Origin: Puniceicoccus vermicola
GTDB lineage: Bacteria; Verrucomicrobiota; Verrucomicrobiia; Opitutales; Puniceicoccaceae
NCBI RefSeq assembly: GCF_014230055.1
Contig: NZ_JACHVA010000046.1
Coordinates: 91,963-155,962, forward strand
Length of the DNA stretch: 64,000 nucleotides
Direction of reading: 5' to 3'
A program made the position numbers and the translations under genes. The notes beneath the pieces are model-generated. The model was not told where the DNA came from. It saw only the letters and a program-made list of their open reading frames with translations, and made no database searches. Below, in pieces: positions 12,476-22,157 of the stretch. Every line of letters starts with the position of its first letter. Position 1 is the first letter of the stretch.

Positions 12476-12689
12476 TTCAACCCCTGACATCTTTGGGAGT
12501 GTCCCCGCGATTTCTGGCATGACCTTTCCAGAGGATTTGGTTGCTGTTTGCCAAACCTAAAGCAATGAGAGACTTCATGCTACGCTGACGTGTTCGCAGA
12601 ACACGTCTAGCTCTCTCCTCGTCGGGGCGAATTTTCAAGATGAGGGGCAACGATTCCTTCGGGAGCTGTTCCCGGATCCGCTCCGCAGC

Positions 12690-12880
12690 AATGCCTCTCA
12701 CCGAGAGCACAGAGCCCACGGAGAAACAGGACAGTAGCATGAACGGAGAACTTGGTTCACGCTCAAATCTCTCTTCTTCTCAGGAGCGCGAGCCTTCAGG
12801 CCGCGTCCAGGTTGCCTCTCAGTAATCTCTTTGGGCTCCGTGCACTCCGTGAGAAAATATGCGTCCCAGATTGAGCTGGA
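12690..12880. repeat. Repeat family C (copy 1)
   Basis: …ctctcaccgagagcacagagcccacggagaaaca…tcaggagcgcgagccttcaggccgcgtccaggttgcctctcagtaatctctttgggctccgtgcactccgtgagaaaatatgcgtcccagattgag. Confidence 0.65.
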
Positions 12881-13235
12881 GATGAAGCCATCGTTGTGGA
12901 CGTCTTTAGGAATCTATTTTGAAACCACAAAAAGCACAGAAATCGCAGAATGGGAATCGGGACTTACGGTCTCTTTTGAGTCCTGTGTGCTTCCTGTGGT
13001 TCGTCTGTTCTGGGGGAATGATATTATCGGAGAGGTTGGTCTCCTGCGTGAGCATTGGGTTCAGAATCAAGCCTTGAGGTTGTTCCGTTCTACCAATTGG
13101 GACCGCGAAGAATTCTCGCCCCAGATAAAGCATTCCAAACATAAGCGTCCATCAGCGGTTGCCAGCTTTGCTGGCTCTTCAACATTCGACCGTATAAAAC
13201 CGAAAACGGGGAACCGGAAAACTGAAAACCGGTAA
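12831..13235 (+). CDS. Hypothetical protein (134 aa) in a repeat-rich, lower-GC patch
   Basis: ORF only; no recognisable motif. Its 3' end overlaps a family-A repeat core. Confidence 0.2.
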   Translation: MGSVHSVRKYASQIELEMKPSLWTSLGIYFETTKSTEIAEWESGLTVSFESCVLPVVRLFWGNDIIGEVGLLREHWVQNQALRLFRSTNWDREEFSPQIKHSKHKRPSAVASFAGSSTFDRIKPKTGNRKTENR

Positions 13236-13259
13236 TTTTCCGGCAAGGCAGAAAAACAA

Positions 13260-14129
13260 TTGCTCTCCAGCGCGAGCGCGGGAAATCTTGGGGGAGTGAA
13301 AAAGCCTCTCGTCTTCATCTCCTCGTCGGCGGTGTCCGTCTTTTTCATGGCCTGTCCGATCCTGTTTTCGCTGGTTTTCCTCCCATCCTCTCTGGTTGCC
13401 GAGGAGGAAGGTGTTTTGCGGGGGTTCCAAGAAGGGTTGCGGGCATCGTCGGAGGAAAAATCTTCCTCCGAATACGAGACGAATCGGGAGCCAGCGCCCG
13501 CTGACGAGGCTCTTGCTGAATTGATTTACATCTTCATGGGTAGTTTCTTTACTTCGGGGACTTATAACAGTGTGGCGCTGGTTGCCCCGGAATCCCGCTC
13601 GGACACGCTGCTCATGAGCTCACCCCGCAGTCCCGGTGAGGCGGTTCTCCCCTACATAGAGGGCGAGTTCCAGTACCAGTGGGTCGACGGCGATACCGAC
13701 GCTCTCGATTTTCGTCTCGCCGGGGGCTATGGACCGGCTGGGGCGTCCGTGCGGTGGACGCGCTATCGCGAGACTGAGCCGGACACCCGCTTGGATGTTC
13801 TCCAAGCCTATGGACACGCTCGGCTCACCTTTGGAAAATTCCTCGAAATCTCCCCGGGCCTCGGCTACGGAAATTTTGCTTTGGGTAGCGACGGCGACGA
13901 TGAGGGAGGTCTGGCGCTCACTATCCCGATTCGTGTCCATTTTGATCCCGGTATCGGGTTCGAATACCGCCCCTCTTGGGTCTTCCCCAACGAAACAACC
14001 GTAAGTGACCAGGACCTGGCCCTAGTTCTCGGCCGTCGACACGTCTTCCTCCGCCTCGGCTACCGATGGCTCTGGAACGACGTCGAAACCCTCTCGGGTC
14101 CCTACATCGGCGTTTCCGCCCGCTGGTAG
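13260..14129 (+). CDS. Hypothetical secreted protein, possibly an outer-membrane beta-barrel; the start is probably internal (MACPILFSLVFLPSSLVA)
   Basis: Internal signal-peptide-like segment. C-terminus rich in alternating aromatic/hydrophobic residues, ending ...YIGVSARW. Confidence 0.4.
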   Translation: MLSSASAGNLGGVKKPLVFISSSAVSVFFMACPILFSLVFLPSSLVAEEEGVLRGFQEGLRASSEEKSSSEYETNREPAPADEALAELIYIFMGSFFTSGTYNSVALVAPESRSDTLLMSSPRSPGEAVLPYIEGEFQYQWVDGDTDALDFRLAGGYGPAGASVRWTRYRETEPDTRLDVLQAYGHARLTFGKFLEISPGLGYGNFALGSDGDDEGGLALTIPIRVHFDPGIGFEYRPSWVFPNETTVSDQDLALVLGRRHVFLRLGYRWLWNDVETLSGPYIGVSARW

Positions 14130-14164
14130 GGACGTTGAGTGCAGGGAAGCTTGATTGATTTCCT

Positions 14165-14480
14165 GTGGTGATGAATGAAATGCATGGATGATTAAACGGA
14201 CTTCATTTGTTTCGGTCCGGAAATCAAAGAGTCCGGCGAAGCCGGAGACCGCTTATTTACGCTTATCTCCGCTAATGAGATAGCAAACAATCCCCATTTC
14301 AGGTCAAATCTCCCAACCATTCTCCCGTAAGCGGTCATGAGCGAAGATCAGCGGTTGCCAGCTTGGTTGGCTCTTCCCCCCCCGTTCGTGGTGATAAGGA
14401 TGAGTGATTGAGGGCGGAAAACTGAGAAGCCAGCGACTGTTCTCCAACAAGGACCGGCGACTTCAGTCGCCGCGCTGCCT
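14165..14480. repeat. Composite dispersed repeat, family B+A (copy 1)
   Basis: Shares …cggtccggaaa(t/c)caaagag(a/t)ccggcgaagccggagaccgcttatttacgcttatctccgct…ccataagcg…agcggttgccagcttt/ggttggctcttc…ccaacaaggaccggcgacttcagtcgccgcgct… with the other copies. Contains the hairpin CGGCGACT-TCA-GTCGCCG. Confidence 0.7.
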
Positions 14481-14519
14481 CTCAGCGGAATCTACGGATC
14501 CTCGGGGGCACTTTCGAAT

Positions 14520-14720
14520 CCGCTCCCACGCATTGCCTCTCACAAAGAGCACAAAGCGCACGGAGAAATTTTCTCGATGCCTGTTATGAGTGCTATTCGG
14601 AAAGTCTGAATCTTTCCTTCTTCAATTATCTCACTTTCAACTCTTCCGCATCCCCAGGAGCTGGATCCTTCAGGTCGCGTACGCGTTGCCTCTCCGCAGA
14701 ATCTGCCGGCTCGTTATGCT
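14520..14720. repeat. Repeat family C (copy 2)
   Basis: ctctcacaaagagcacaaagcgcacggagaaatttt…gtctgaatctttccttcttcaattatctcactttcaactcttccgcatccccaggagctggatccttcaggtcgcgtacgcgttgcctctc. Confidence 0.65.
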
Positions 14721-20230: not shown

Positions 20231-20374
20231 TGTCGGTTGACTCCAATCGGAGAGGTTCTTTTTGAAAAGATTTACCTGATAAGGATGTAGTCGAACGATA
20301 TGATTGCCTCTTGGCAACCTCTGTGCACTCCGGGAGAGACCTCGCAGGACCGATTCTCCGTAGATTTCCCAACC

Positions 20375-20580
20375 CTTCTCCCATAAGCGTTTATGAGCGA
20401 ATATAAGCGGTTGCCAGCTTTGCTGGCTCTTCTCCTTTTCCTCTGGATAAGGATGAACGATTGAAGTCGGAAAACCGAGAAGCTCAGCAACGGCTCCCCA
20501 ACAAGGACCGGCGACTTCAGTCGCCGCCCGTAGGCTCTGCGGCTCTCGCCGAGGCATATCTTTAGATTGTCTGTTCGACC
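20375..20580. repeat. Repeat family A (copy 3)
   Basis: ccataagcgtttatgagcgaatataagcggttgccagctttgctggctcttctccttttcctctggataaggatgaacgattgaagtcggaaaaccgagaagctcagcaacggctccccaacaaggaccggcgacttcagtcgccgcccgtaggctctgcgg. Confidence 0.75.
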
Positions 20581-20734
20581 TCTTCCCTTTTGTCCCAACT
20601 TCGCCGCCTCGACCAACCGTCGCGTCGAGTAGCACATGGGCGAACAGGAAAGAATGGATAGGTTCTTAAGCGGATCTTAAAAACCCGCGTCGAGTGGCGA
20701 TAGATAATTCCGGGATCTCGTGCTCCGAATCCTA

Positions 20735-21205
20735 TCAGTCGGACTCGCGTAAGTTGATGCGATCAATCGAATCCAGCATGACCAGAGGGACACCTTCGAG
20801 GCTGATTGCTAAAAAATTGGTTTCGTTGAGCCGTTCGTTTGGTTTTGCTAATTTCCGACTGGGGCTATCCAGCGAAATGGAATGGATCAGATCGTTACCT
20901 TCGAAGAACTCAATCACGGCAAGACTACCTTTGATTCTATACTTTTGCTTGAAAGCAAATTCCAAGTGGTATGTGCGGTAGGCAAAGTCGTTGATTTGTT
21001 TGCTTTCCGGGCTGATTACACGCGTGACGGTGTCGTGGACTGCTCGCAGGGTAATGCCTTGTTTTGTGACCTCCAGTGGATAGTCATCCATGGTGATTTT
21101 GAAATGGGTCTCTGCTACCGAGAGTTCGTCGAAAATCGGACTTTCCGCCGAAAGTGAGGCGATTGAGAAAAACAGAAAGGCGACCGGTAAAGCGAGGTAG
21201 CGCAT
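20735..21205 (-). CDS. Hypothetical secreted protein (156 aa)
   Basis: Signal peptide MRYLALPVAFLFFSIASLSA. Confidence 0.45.
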   Translation of the reverse strand: MRYLALPVAFLFFSIASLSAESPIFDELSVAETHFKITMDDYPLEVTKQGITLRAVHDTVTRVISPESKQINDFAYRTYHLEFAFKQKYRIKGSLAVIEFFEGNDLIHSISLDSPSRKLAKPNERLNETNFLAISLEGVPLVMLDSIDRINLRESD

Positions 21206-21234
21206 GGTCGAAGAATGTATAGAAAATCTTGCTC

Positions 21235-21410
21235 AGTCAAACCTTCGAAAGGAATCCCCGCTGGAGGGCCGGATTTATCCGGAACCGCTCTGCTTCTCCG
21301 AGGGCCCTTCCAACGCATTCCGGATAAATCCGGTACTCCAACGCTTTTGGCTGCGTTTCGCTGGACCGCGGATTTCAATCCGCCCCGTTGGAGCCGTTGT
21401 TCGTGGGGTG
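21235..21410. repeat. Palindromic repeat family G (copy 1)
   Basis: ggccggatttatccggaaccgctctgcttctccgagggcccttccaacgcattccggataaatccggtactccaacgcttttggctgcgtttcgctggaccgcggatttcaatccgccccgttggagccgttgttcgtgggg. Inverted arms CCGGATTTATCCGGAA / TTCCGGATAAATCCGG. Confidence 0.75.
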
Positions 21411-21584
21411 AAAATACGGGGACAGGGACCGGAGGATTGATCGATTTTGCATTGGGTGATCCCCATCCTGAGCATCCTGTCCATCCATGCCAAAATCAGC
21501 TGTTTCGGAATATCGCTCTGCAGGGATGCACATGGATTCACGCCGATGAATGATTCTGAGAATCTCTTTACTCCAGGTCACGCC

Positions 21585-21790
21585 TTCGAACCATACTCCC
21601 ATAAGCGTCCATAAGCGCATATCAGCGGTTGCCAGCTTCGCTGGCTCTTCACCTCTTCCTCTGAAGAAGGATGAACGAGCGAAGCCGGAAAGCTGACTAG
21701 CTCAGCAACTGCTAGCCTAACAAGGAACGGCGACTTCAGTCGCCGCGCTTAGGTTCTGTAAATCACGCTGAGGCATATCTTTATATTTTG
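21585..21790. repeat. Repeat family A (copy 4)
   Basis: ccataagcgtccataagcgcatatcagcggttgccagcttcgctggctcttcacctcttcctctgaagaaggatgaacgagcgaagccggaaagctgactagctcagcaact…aacaaggaacggcgacttcagtcgccgcgcttaggttctg. Confidence 0.75.
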
Positions 21791-22157
21791 CGTTTGATCC
21801 CAATTTAAGCCTGATCACTGTCCCGACACCATTCCACCTGCCCGTTCCTCAGCCAGAAGTGAGATCGGCAACCAGCCTTAAGCCAAACAGACGGTTTTAA
21901 TGTCGGTCTGCCCTTGGAATCAGTCATCAAAGTCCACCGTGGGGAGGCTTCTGGGATAAGCATCAATTCAATCAATTTCTGGCAGCCACAGGGGCACCTC
22001 ATACCGACGCACCAGTCTTCGTGTCCATCCCGAGCAAGCACGAGCACTCTTTGGGGGATTTTGTCCGGCAAACTATCTCCCTCGACGATCACCAATCTCC
22101 ATTTCTTTGAAAAACGTGAAAGGAATGGAGATATGAGCCGACGAATGAATTGTTGGA

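Follow-up and report, generated by a model that had tools for sequence, protein, structure and literature searches.

Hairpin-built, co-oriented intergenic repeats of REP/BIME-like character in a Puniceicoccus vermicola chromosomal region

Two families of dispersed intergenic repeats, AB and C, lie in a 64,000-nucleotide stretch of the chromosome of Puniceicoccus vermicola (Verrucomicrobiota, Opitutia). This stretch, the window, corresponds to positions 4412566–4476565 of JBEPNX010000001.1 (GCA_040546485.1; 5,189,224 bp), and the chromosome sequence covered was the window plus ~9 kb on each side, ~82 kb of 5.19 Mb. The repeats were mapped with a repeat finder, self-BLAST, and profile hidden Markov models (HMMs), and all three agree. 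The original prediction, made from the letters of the window, had placed two such families here, and both are recovered by self-BLAST and the repeat finder. The profile HMMs divide AB into five long copies and two core fragments (five strong and two partial matches), and C into three long copies, two right halves, and one weak fragment at 20304–20355 (20296–20355 in its full extent). The copies are as follows.

14189–14476, plus strand: AB14, left end complete, with terminal hairpin, ~150-bp imperfect palindrome A, linker, and hairpin B (repeat alignments, HMM)
17799–18013, plus strand: AB17, the sole copy with both termini (repeat alignment)
20348–20580, plus strand: AB20, 5′-truncated, begins within the loop of palindrome A (alignment, HMM)
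21566–21801, plus strand: AB21, 5′-truncated, begins within the loop of palindrome A (alignment, HMM)
28674–28956, plus strand: AB28, palindrome, linker, and hairpin B intact (alignment, fold)
13140–13230, plus strand: partial AB, right arm of palindrome A (GCCAGC-TTT-GCTGGC hairpin) and GAAAACCG-rich linker (HMM E 4e-10)
6571–6653, plus strand: partial AB, covers the same part as 13140–13230, more diverged (HMM E 2.8e-8)
12640–12880, plus strand: C12, left and right halves (alignment, HMM)
14474–14745, plus strand: C14, fused to the end of AB14 (alignment, HMM)
17431–17710, plus strand: C17, first part of the composite C17-AB17-C18 (alignment, HMM)
16360–16470, plus strand: C16, right half alone, 10 nt past the glutamate dehydrogenase (GDH) stop (HMM E 1e-32)
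18107–18192, plus strand: C18, diverged right half (HMM E 1e-18)

Pairwise identities for AB and C range from 77 to 95%, a lower floor than the 85–95% originally predicted, and the E-values of 1e-14 to 1e-79 are far beyond chance. In AB, 14222–14476 and 28680–28931 are 84% identical over 256 nt, 20369–20555 and 28770–28956 are 94.7% identical over 187 nt, 17844–18005 is 88% identical to 20414–20575, and 20371–20568 is 83% identical to 21589–21787. The corresponding values in C are 80% over 185 nt (14510–14694 and 17475–17650), 92.8% (16369–16465 and 17595–17691), and 81% (12783–12875 and 17613–17706). Both families had been expected across 12.5–29 kb; AB does reach 29 kb, but C occupies only 12.6–18.2 kb, or extends to 20.4 kb if the weak fragment is counted. 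The A-like cores predicted near 6575 and 13150 are the two partial HMM matches.

The longest AB reconstruction is ~340 nt and consists of five parts. A left terminal hairpin (TGATTARACGGAC...GTCCG) is followed by palindrome A (~150 nt), whose arms (AGAGACCGGCGAAGCCGGAGACCGCTTAT... and ...ATAAGCGGTTGCCAGCTTTGCTGGCTCT) are ~73% complementary and each contain a small hairpin of their own. The third part is a ~75-nt linker with the invariant AAGGATGA...CGGAAA, the fourth is hairpin B (CGGCGAC-TTCA-GTCGCCG, 7-bp stem) beside a GTTGGGGAG-type tag, and the fifth is a tail of ~55 nt. Hairpin B and its tag form a B unit that reads on the minus strand in each long copy.

14455–14472, minus strand: B unit of AB14, the example copy, hairpin CGGCGAC-TGAA-GTCGCCG, then GTCCTT, then tag GTTGGAG
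17938–17957, minus strand: B unit of AB17, same hairpin-plus-tag arrangement, tag GTTGGGGAG
20509–20526, minus strand: B unit of AB20, same arrangement, tag GTTGGGGAG
21727–21746, minus strand: B unit of AB21, same arrangement, tag GTTAGGC
28910–28927, minus strand: B unit of AB28, same arrangement, tag GTTGGGGAG

The AB hairpins have stems of 6–7 bp and loops of 3–4 nt, and they are invariant in all five long copies compared to a mean alignment column identity of 66%. The original prediction assigned one internal hairpin to each family; both hairpins exist, but both belong to AB. AB folds better than shuffled sequence on the plus strand (z −4.4) and on the minus strand (z −3.2), and palindrome A alone, folded as DNA, gives z values of −2.3 to −4.5 (AB14, −2.25; AB28, −4.48). 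Weak terminator-like sites were called at two A hairpins on the plus strand and, on the minus strand, at every one of the five B hairpins. The sequence (T/A)TGAT precedes both complete AB left ends (n = 2). The target of ISDra2 is TTGAT, which this motif recalls at these two ends only.

The copies differ in what they have lost. AB14 lacks its right tail and has in its place a direct junction to C14 (CGCGCT|GCCTCTC). AB17 has lost the inside of palindrome A, so that the two inverted hairpins of the palindrome are joined (junction GACCGGC|TTCGCTGGC), and the loss of exactly the palindrome interior is the behavior expected of a genuine long palindrome. The left terminal hairpin of AB28 is replaced by an adjoining copy of another repeat, E (28577–28670). 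AB20 is directly preceded by the C-right fragment at 20296–20355, and AB21 follows a copy of repeat D (21254–21415) and ends 4 nt short of the stop of the DUF6527/BubE gene. The decay states include 5′ truncation, half copies, and palindrome collapse.

In family C, a central bulged hairpin is flanked by two modules, the left (...CTACGCATAGCCTCTCACAGAGAGCACAAAGCTCACGGAGAAAT) and the right (...GGGAGCGCGAGCCTTCAGGCCGCGTCCGCGCTGCCTCTCGGGAGCC...GTGAGAGAAT), and GCCTCTC is present in both. The right module is also found on its own, and long-range pairing between the left and right modules is modest (z −2.3). The left module contains the stretch TTCGA(A/G)TC..CTCC(C/T)ACGC at 14510–14535 and 17475–17500. 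This stretch resembles the T-loop and acceptor 3′ end of tRNA-Arg(acg) at 40696–40767 (8 + 8 nt with a 2-nt gap). A remnant of an att site was considered and rejected, since the match is only 8 + 8 nt and has no covariance-model support; the likeness may be due to chance.

Every AB and C copy is intergenic, and all are on the same strand. They lie between co-directional or convergent genes, and none occupies the short divergent gap at 24682–24810. The fullest composite, C17-AB17-C18, is located between the convergent genes 16656–17255 and 18211–19566. AB and C adjoin in varying order at 14.2–14.7, 17.4–18.2, and 20.3–20.6 kb. Because the neighboring genes lie on both strands, the orientation of the repeats follows the chromosome and not transcription. 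The GC skew of the plus strand is positive across nearly all of the window, falling below zero only at 20–26 kb, and thus the window probably lies within one replichore. The GC content of the window is 54.6% and falls to 48–52% at 16–28 kb. Between 12476 and 29111, 33% of the sequence is intergenic, and recognizable repeats account for half of that share.

AB and C are not the only repeats in the window, which contains at least eight non-coding families. The others are listed here.

6358–6422, plus strand: F, GTAG-TGAGAGC-TTCC-AGCTCTC, then GTTGGAGCGGG
10456–10520, plus strand: F, same arrangement
56055–56119, plus strand: F, same arrangement
56160–56224, plus strand: F, same arrangement
21254–21415, plus strand: D, inverted doublet of repetitive extragenic palindromic (REP) type, REPIN-like
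38299–38475, plus strand: D, same type
38598–38748, plus strand: D, same type
42127–42278, plus strand: D, same type
42278–42345, plus strand: D, same type
42551–42696, plus strand: D, same type
27615–27658, direct: G, reverse complement is GTAG plus hairpin
30886–30929, direct: G, same
56305–56348, direct: G, same
28577–28670, direct: E, small repeat family
30984–31077, direct: E, same
38830–38891, direct: H, terminator and gene 3′ end
53512–53573, direct: H, same
12551–12615, direct: I, small repeat family
53431–53495, direct: I, same

Family F is a textbook GTAG-tagged REP. Family D is a doublet of the form GTTGGAG-TA-CCGGATTTATCCGG ... CCGGATAAATCCGG-TA-CTCCAAC, in which arms of 26 nt (GTTGGAGTACCGGATTTATCCGGAAT) enclose GCTGCCTCTCGGAGGG; its fold is very strong (z −4.6 to −9), it is the only family in which inverted-repeat BLAST detected arms, and subsets of its copies have extra flanking modules in common. 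H and I adjoin at 53.4–53.6 kb and are separate elsewhere. These families, which span 50 kb, are likewise all direct. Altogether, 31 of the 31 copies of eight families are in direct orientation, an outcome with a chance of 2^-23 if orientation were random.

The families draw on the same short modules. GTTGGAG occurs 29 times compared to 10 expected, and it stands beside hairpins in four modules: as hairpin-N7-GTTGGAGCGG in F, as GTTGGAG-TA-hairpin in each of the two arms of the D core, as hairpin-CCC-GTTGGAGCCGTTG in the D extension, and as hairpin-GTCCTT-GTTGGGGAGCCGTTG in the AB B unit when this is read on the minus strand. For the octamer TGCCTCTC, 16 occurrences compare with three expected; it comes after a hairpin twice in each C element, and it also does so in the D center and at the AB14/C14 junction. 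GCTGCCTCTCGG is common to the D center and the C right module. These shared modules identify AB and C as large mosaics built from a common stock of hairpin-plus-tag units, as bacterial interspersed mosaic elements (BIMEs) are to REPs.

Protein-coding origins find no support in the copies. Six-frame translations do not contain a conserved open frame, and stops or indels interrupt each frame in some copy. The open reading frames (ORFs) called inside repeats are singleton clusters. A search with concatenated six-frame peptides was null but uninformative, as control chimeric queries made of real proteins retrieved only long fusion proteins. A small hydrophobic ORF of the type I toxin–antitoxin (LDR/QUAD-like) kind is not conserved among the copies, and the mini-ORF ATG-AAC-GAT-TGA is just three codons. 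By-products of gene duplication were rejected, because the flanking proteins are not paralogous and similarity ends at the element borders. The splitting of an array by gene insertion was rejected as well, because the 5′-truncated and half copies are not complementary halves. Units of 90–340 nt spaced 1.2–7.2 kb apart with genes between them exclude CRISPR, as had been anticipated; CRISPR direct repeats measure 23–50 nt and alternate regularly with unique spacers of comparable length.

AB and C are structured, non-coding, and independently duplicated, with strongly conserved hairpins and shared modules. We consider with moderate confidence that they are non-autonomous mosaic repeat elements of the REP/BIME/REPIN kind in the P. 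vermicola chromosome, and we file them as REP/BIME-like mosaic repeats outside any named REP family. Their basic unit is a stem-loop, which palindrome A fits as two inverted hairpin-bearing arms; their location is extragenic; and their make-up is BIME-like. The REP side of the predicted "MITE/REP-type" label (MITE, miniature inverted-repeat transposable element) thus holds, since the elements are extragenic, non-coding, hairpin-built, and mosaic, and have a hairpin-plus-tag unit in common with the GTAG REP family F. Opitutus terrae and other bacteria of the Planctomycetes–Verrucomicrobia–Chlamydiae (PVC) group are known to contain families of REPs, as well as REP dimers, clusters, and mosaic arrays (PMC3733652), and O. 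terrae, with its GTAG REP families, belongs to the same class as P. vermicola.

AB and C would have multiplied as DNA and not as genes with their neighbors. The likeliest route would be a single-strand, hairpin-recognizing HUH/Y1 pathway, either that of a REP-associated tyrosine transposase (RAYT) or one like that of the insertion sequences (ISs) of the IS200/IS605 family, and recombination between shared modules may assist the spread. Such a pathway has been proposed for REPs and REPINs (PMC3116915, PMC3733652). The template of the lagging strand is what IS200/IS605 elements target (PMC6006769), and REP arrays have been described that run forward on one genome side but in reverse on the opposite side (PMC3116915). 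A single-strand HUH/Y1 route tied to the lagging strand would account for the strict co-orientation. Later decay of the copies would have spared the hairpins. At present, the elements are probably passive or of slight use, with hairpins at transcript ends acting as weak terminators or RNA stabilizers and the elements acting as spacers between genes. A gene of the appropriate type lies nearby.

70799–71704 in window-equivalent coordinates (L023:21297–22202), plus strand: Y1/HUH transposase-like gene, 301 aa, 6.8 kb right of the window

The protein is a candidate for the type of enzyme that would spread the repeats; it reaches 37 bits on Pfam Y1_Tnp and contains the RAYT-like motifs HFHILV and YIDLNAVRAGLV. 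A broader proposal is more speculative, and we consider it doubtful: an undescribed REP-like superfamily in P. vermicola, and perhaps in other PVC bacteria, in which a GTTGGAG tag stands beside interchangeable hairpins and copying occurs through single-stranded DNA at the replication fork by a divergent Y1/HUH enzyme of ~300 aa. AB and C would be its large BIME-like composites, gathered locally in a defense-gene island. A superfamily copied in this way would account for the uniform direction of all copies in all families.

The B hairpin is found in other organisms. A genome-collection scan with a 24-mer of the AB core gave one match, to the hairpin only, in a Puniceicoccaceae metagenome-assembled genome (MAG), and a metagenome scan gave 14 contigs, again hairpin only, with 52–67% GC. 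The B hairpin with a GGAMC foot recurs outside the P. vermicola genome. It is present as an inverted doublet in contig L012 and several times per contig in L010, L011, and L014, and a T-run follows it in L003 and L004. Four contigs from three samples (L005, L007, L008, and L013) have a near-identical context of ~130 nt around a B-type hairpin, with a second related hairpin, GGCGAATTCATTCGCC, inverted and ~60 nt away; this context suggests a REPIN-like element of another organism. The GDH encoded in the window (15088–16350) matches the P. vermicola protein at 100% identity. Beyond that, its closest database relatives are 84–80% identical, for example that of Cerasicoccus arenae, and the GDH loci of these relatives show neither synteny nor a copy of AB, C, or D. 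The Logan assembly of run SRR35197471 contains contigs of the same organism, and the contig used for direct comparison, L002, matches the window at 100% identity. Logan contigs stop inside repeats: L002 spans 17940–20422, and L022 and L024 terminate in F copies. These ends show only that exact words are common to the copies.

A number of observations weigh against assigning AB and C to the REP/BIME/REPIN kind. Some concern the elements themselves. Neither family has a canonical GTAG or CGTC tag in the right position, the GTTGG(G)GAG tag lying 6 nt from hairpin B, and the C right half alone does not have significant structure (z −0.5 to −0.9). Outside P. vermicola, the GTTGG tag clearly accompanies the B hairpin only in L012. 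Others concern the candidate enzyme. The Y1 protein scores 54.9 bits on NCBIfam REP_Tyr_transpos, for which the cut-off is 80, and it has no significant relative among PDB sequences; its gene is not flanked by AB/C-type repeats, and an epimerase gene lies 124 nt downstream. The remaining points concern distribution. High genome-wide copy number, with tens to hundreds of dispersed copies, is a REP hallmark, and the AB and C copies are known from the ~82 kb alone. Compared to random intergenic placement, both AB (p about 0.012–0.016) and C (p 0.001) are clustered in the 80.8 kb analyzed. AB and C copies are absent from 29–64 kb of the window, and none of the window families has a copy in 16.8 kb of flanks. 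The genome scan, the metagenome scan, three viral scans, and plasmid and phage blastn searches yielded no full-length AB or C. The genome-collection scan did not return P. vermicola, a genome that is not known to be within the searched collection. Presence/absence polymorphism that would show mobility was not seen in the sole other sample, SRR35197471, which is identical over the one contig compared (L002).

The distribution is also the main support for the strongest alternative, that the repeats are local, non-mobile leftovers. Here, an ancestral C-AB-C-like block (compare 17431–18192) would have been copied only within a ~22-kb island by duplication, template switching, or recombination as foreign genes accumulated, and AB and C would mark the junctions of island assembly. 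We regard this as possible and less probable than REP/BIME-like elements. The significant clustering, the lack of copies in the flanks and in the remaining 35 kb of the window, the direct orientation of all copies, and the recurrence of adjacent AB and C in changing order all agree with it. So do the nature of the region, which is 33% intergenic, lower in GC (48–52%), and rich in defense genes, and the single genome-collection scan without a P. vermicola match, read with the limit on that collection given above. However, flanking genes or unique DNA are not duplicated with the repeats, and the truncated copies do not pair as halves of a split element. A divergence of 5–23% around invariant hairpins suggests constraint or sequence-specific recognition, the B unit is present in other organisms, and the other direct families of the window span 50 kb.

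Multi-copy small RNA genes, which the original prediction offered as an option, or cis-acting RNA elements such as 3′ untranslated region stabilizers or terminators would be selected on RNA structure, and this explanation appears unlikely. The significant fold of AB, the terminator-like calls on five B and two A hairpins, the G-T compatibility of some differences between arms, and the position of most copies downstream of genes are in its favor. However, Rfam searches at the gathering score over the whole window and at E ≤ 1 over 12400–22000 returned nine tRNAs only, and a conserved sigma-70-like promoter was not found across the copies. Compensatory change is nearly absent, affecting one of 43 predicted pairs in AB and five of 51 in C, with many broken pairs. 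Good folding is seen on both strands, as in DNA palindromes, and the truncation points differ among copies. Orientation is tied to the chromosome strand, so that copies are sense to some genes and antisense to others. These data do not bear out a family of small RNA genes.

Classical MITEs, deletion derivatives of a DDE transposon (for example of ISL3) that move by cut-and-paste with terminal inverted repeats (TIRs) and target-site duplications (TSDs), are very unlikely. The size of 220–340 bp and the non-coding character would suit them, an ISL3 transposase gene is present at 63173–64363, and there is a possible 8-nt inverted match, (A/G)ACGGAC, of the AB14/AB17 left end with the AB17 right end. 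The check for TIRs and TSDs proposed with the original prediction yielded neither convincingly in AB or C: the 8-nt match is the only possible TIR and occurs in the one copy with both ends, a target duplication is not visible, and C does not have a terminal inverted repeat. The inverted repeats of ISL3 are unrelated to the AB and C ends, and strict co-orientation is not expected of DDE MITEs. The strict MITE part of the predicted label is therefore not retained. The ISL3-family transposase gene (63173–64000, minus strand, continuing to ~64363 outside the window; NCBIfam, 334 bits) belongs to an element with 24-nt imperfect inverted repeats (GGTTCATCGTC...). Several ISL3 copies in the genome are suggested by a Logan contig that ends at the edge of this one.

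Integron-like attC sites, a cluster of attC sites lacking an integrase (CALIN), or tandem att sites separating gene cassettes are highly improbable: structured repeats of one orientation do fill nearly every gap between units of one to a few genes in an accessory, defense-gene setting, and the C left module does resemble a tRNA T-loop and acceptor end, but an integrase or tyrosine recombinase is absent from the window ORFs scanned and from the flank ORFs as judged by precomputed Pfam labels only, the R′′/R′ consensus (RYYYAAC...GTTRRRY) is either missing or wrongly ordered, AB and C exceed attC sites 2–4-fold in length, a tRNA-like match was not obtained at E ≤ 1, and the "cassettes" hold up to eight genes on both strands, including the housekeeping-type GDH.

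Several other features of the region were noted. A minus-strand operon of the ubiquitin-like anti-phage type occupies 21805–26617 (DUF6527/BubE, JAB+ThiF (E1), Multiubiquitin+Prok-E2_E) at ~48% GC. A divergent plus-strand trio ends in a CapP-like M78 peptidase (PADLOC capP, 189 bits), with a 131-aa ORF before it in a CapH-like position. We infer that the setting is a horizontally acquired, defense-rich region; the link between the repeats and the defense island may be only a matter of location. Gene calls disagree at 19589–20635 (minus strand): 348 aa for the longest ORF, only 67 aa in the deposited NCBI annotation, and a partial of at least 277 aa in the Logan assembly. In line with the predicted spurious N-terminal extension, the ORF reads through AB20; the plausible gene encodes a transmembrane-rich protein of 211 aa that begins at the ATG at 20224 and has hydrophobic segments. 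Nine tightly packed tRNA genes (40382–41177, minus strand: Leu-aag ×2, Arg-acg ×2, Gln, Met, Leu-cag, Phe, and Asn), some with unusual lengths or overlapping ends, are bracketed by the D repeats at 38.3–38.75 and 42.1–42.7 kb. Direct repeats at 51373–51819 and 51905–52310 (78–88% identity) lie inside a VWA-domain protein gene (49472–52744, minus strand); they code for protein and have no relation to the intergenic families.

The repeats are genuine, though rather ordinary as a finding, and nothing indicates a new kind of system. If AB and C are REP/BIME-like mosaics, Puniceicoccaceae would join the lineages rich in REP/BIME-type repertoires. For annotators, such repeats swell the intergenic space, break short-read assemblies, and create spurious ORFs and N-terminal extensions that have to be discounted. 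The strict co-orientation of 31 copies in eight families over 50 kb is a clean test case for replication-coupled single-strand spread. This feature is the one worth following, along with what may be a GTTGGAG-tagged class of REPs in the PVC group.

Known repeat systems resemble AB and C to different degrees. Like the attC sites of chromosomal integrons, for example the Vibrio cholerae repeats, AB and C are co-oriented structured repeats between small gene units; unlike attC sites (57–141 bp), they are too long, do not have R′′/R′ boxes, separate multi-gene bidirectional units, and are not accompanied by an IntI in the sequence scanned. BOX and ERIC (enterobacterial repetitive intergenic consensus) elements are modular (boxA-B-C) or long imperfect palindromes of 100–300 bp, intergenic and dispersed genome-wide, and their mobilization is uncertain. 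AB and C are similarly modular and intergenic with a long imperfect palindrome, but the sequences are not similar and the host phyla differ. In Neisseria, the intergenic mosaic elements (NIMEs; RS blocks with dRS3 repeats at their borders) are like them in forming large intergenic arrays with interleaved families and shuffled modules (PMC3733652). The sequences of NIMEs and Correia elements are unrelated to AB and C, dRS3 being a CGTC-type 20-mer, and the 26-bp TIRs and TA duplication of Correia elements are both missing from AB and C. Palindrome-associated transposable elements (PATEs) derived from IS200/IS605 and Y1-mobilized MITEs are also close: their hairpins lie subterminally, TIRs and TSDs are lacking, they measure 150–350 bp, and PATEs insert 3′ of a fixed tetra- or pentanucleotide. 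Co-orientation is expected from their lagging-strand single-strand transposition (PMC6006769). In AB, hairpins stand near both ends, and the copies are co-oriented. Unlike PATEs, AB and C do not have a known parent IS or a tnpA/tnpB with matching ends.

The closest kinds are the REPs and BIMEs of Enterobacteria, the REPINs of Pseudomonas fluorescens, and the GTAG REPs of O. terrae (PMC3733652; PMC3116915). AB and C differ from them in size (220–340 bp compared to 20–40 bp for REPs and ~70–110 bp for REPINs), in the tag (GTTGG(G)GAG or GCCTCTC instead of GTAG or CGTC), and in the Y1 gene, which, unlike that of the REP/RAYT system, is long (301 aa), scores under the RAYT cut-off, and is not flanked by repeats. 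The likenesses extend from the unit to the chromosome. AB and C are extragenic and non-coding and are built of short GC-rich stem-loops with an unpaired conserved tag. As in REPINs, inverted doublets form long hairpins (D and palindrome A). As in BIMEs, units and conserved linkers form mosaics, and several unrelated families share one genome. As with REPs, the copies lie mostly between co-directional or convergent genes, a Y1/HUH-like gene is nearby, and both clustered blocks (T. roseum GTAG-23) and arrays co-oriented by genome side are known.

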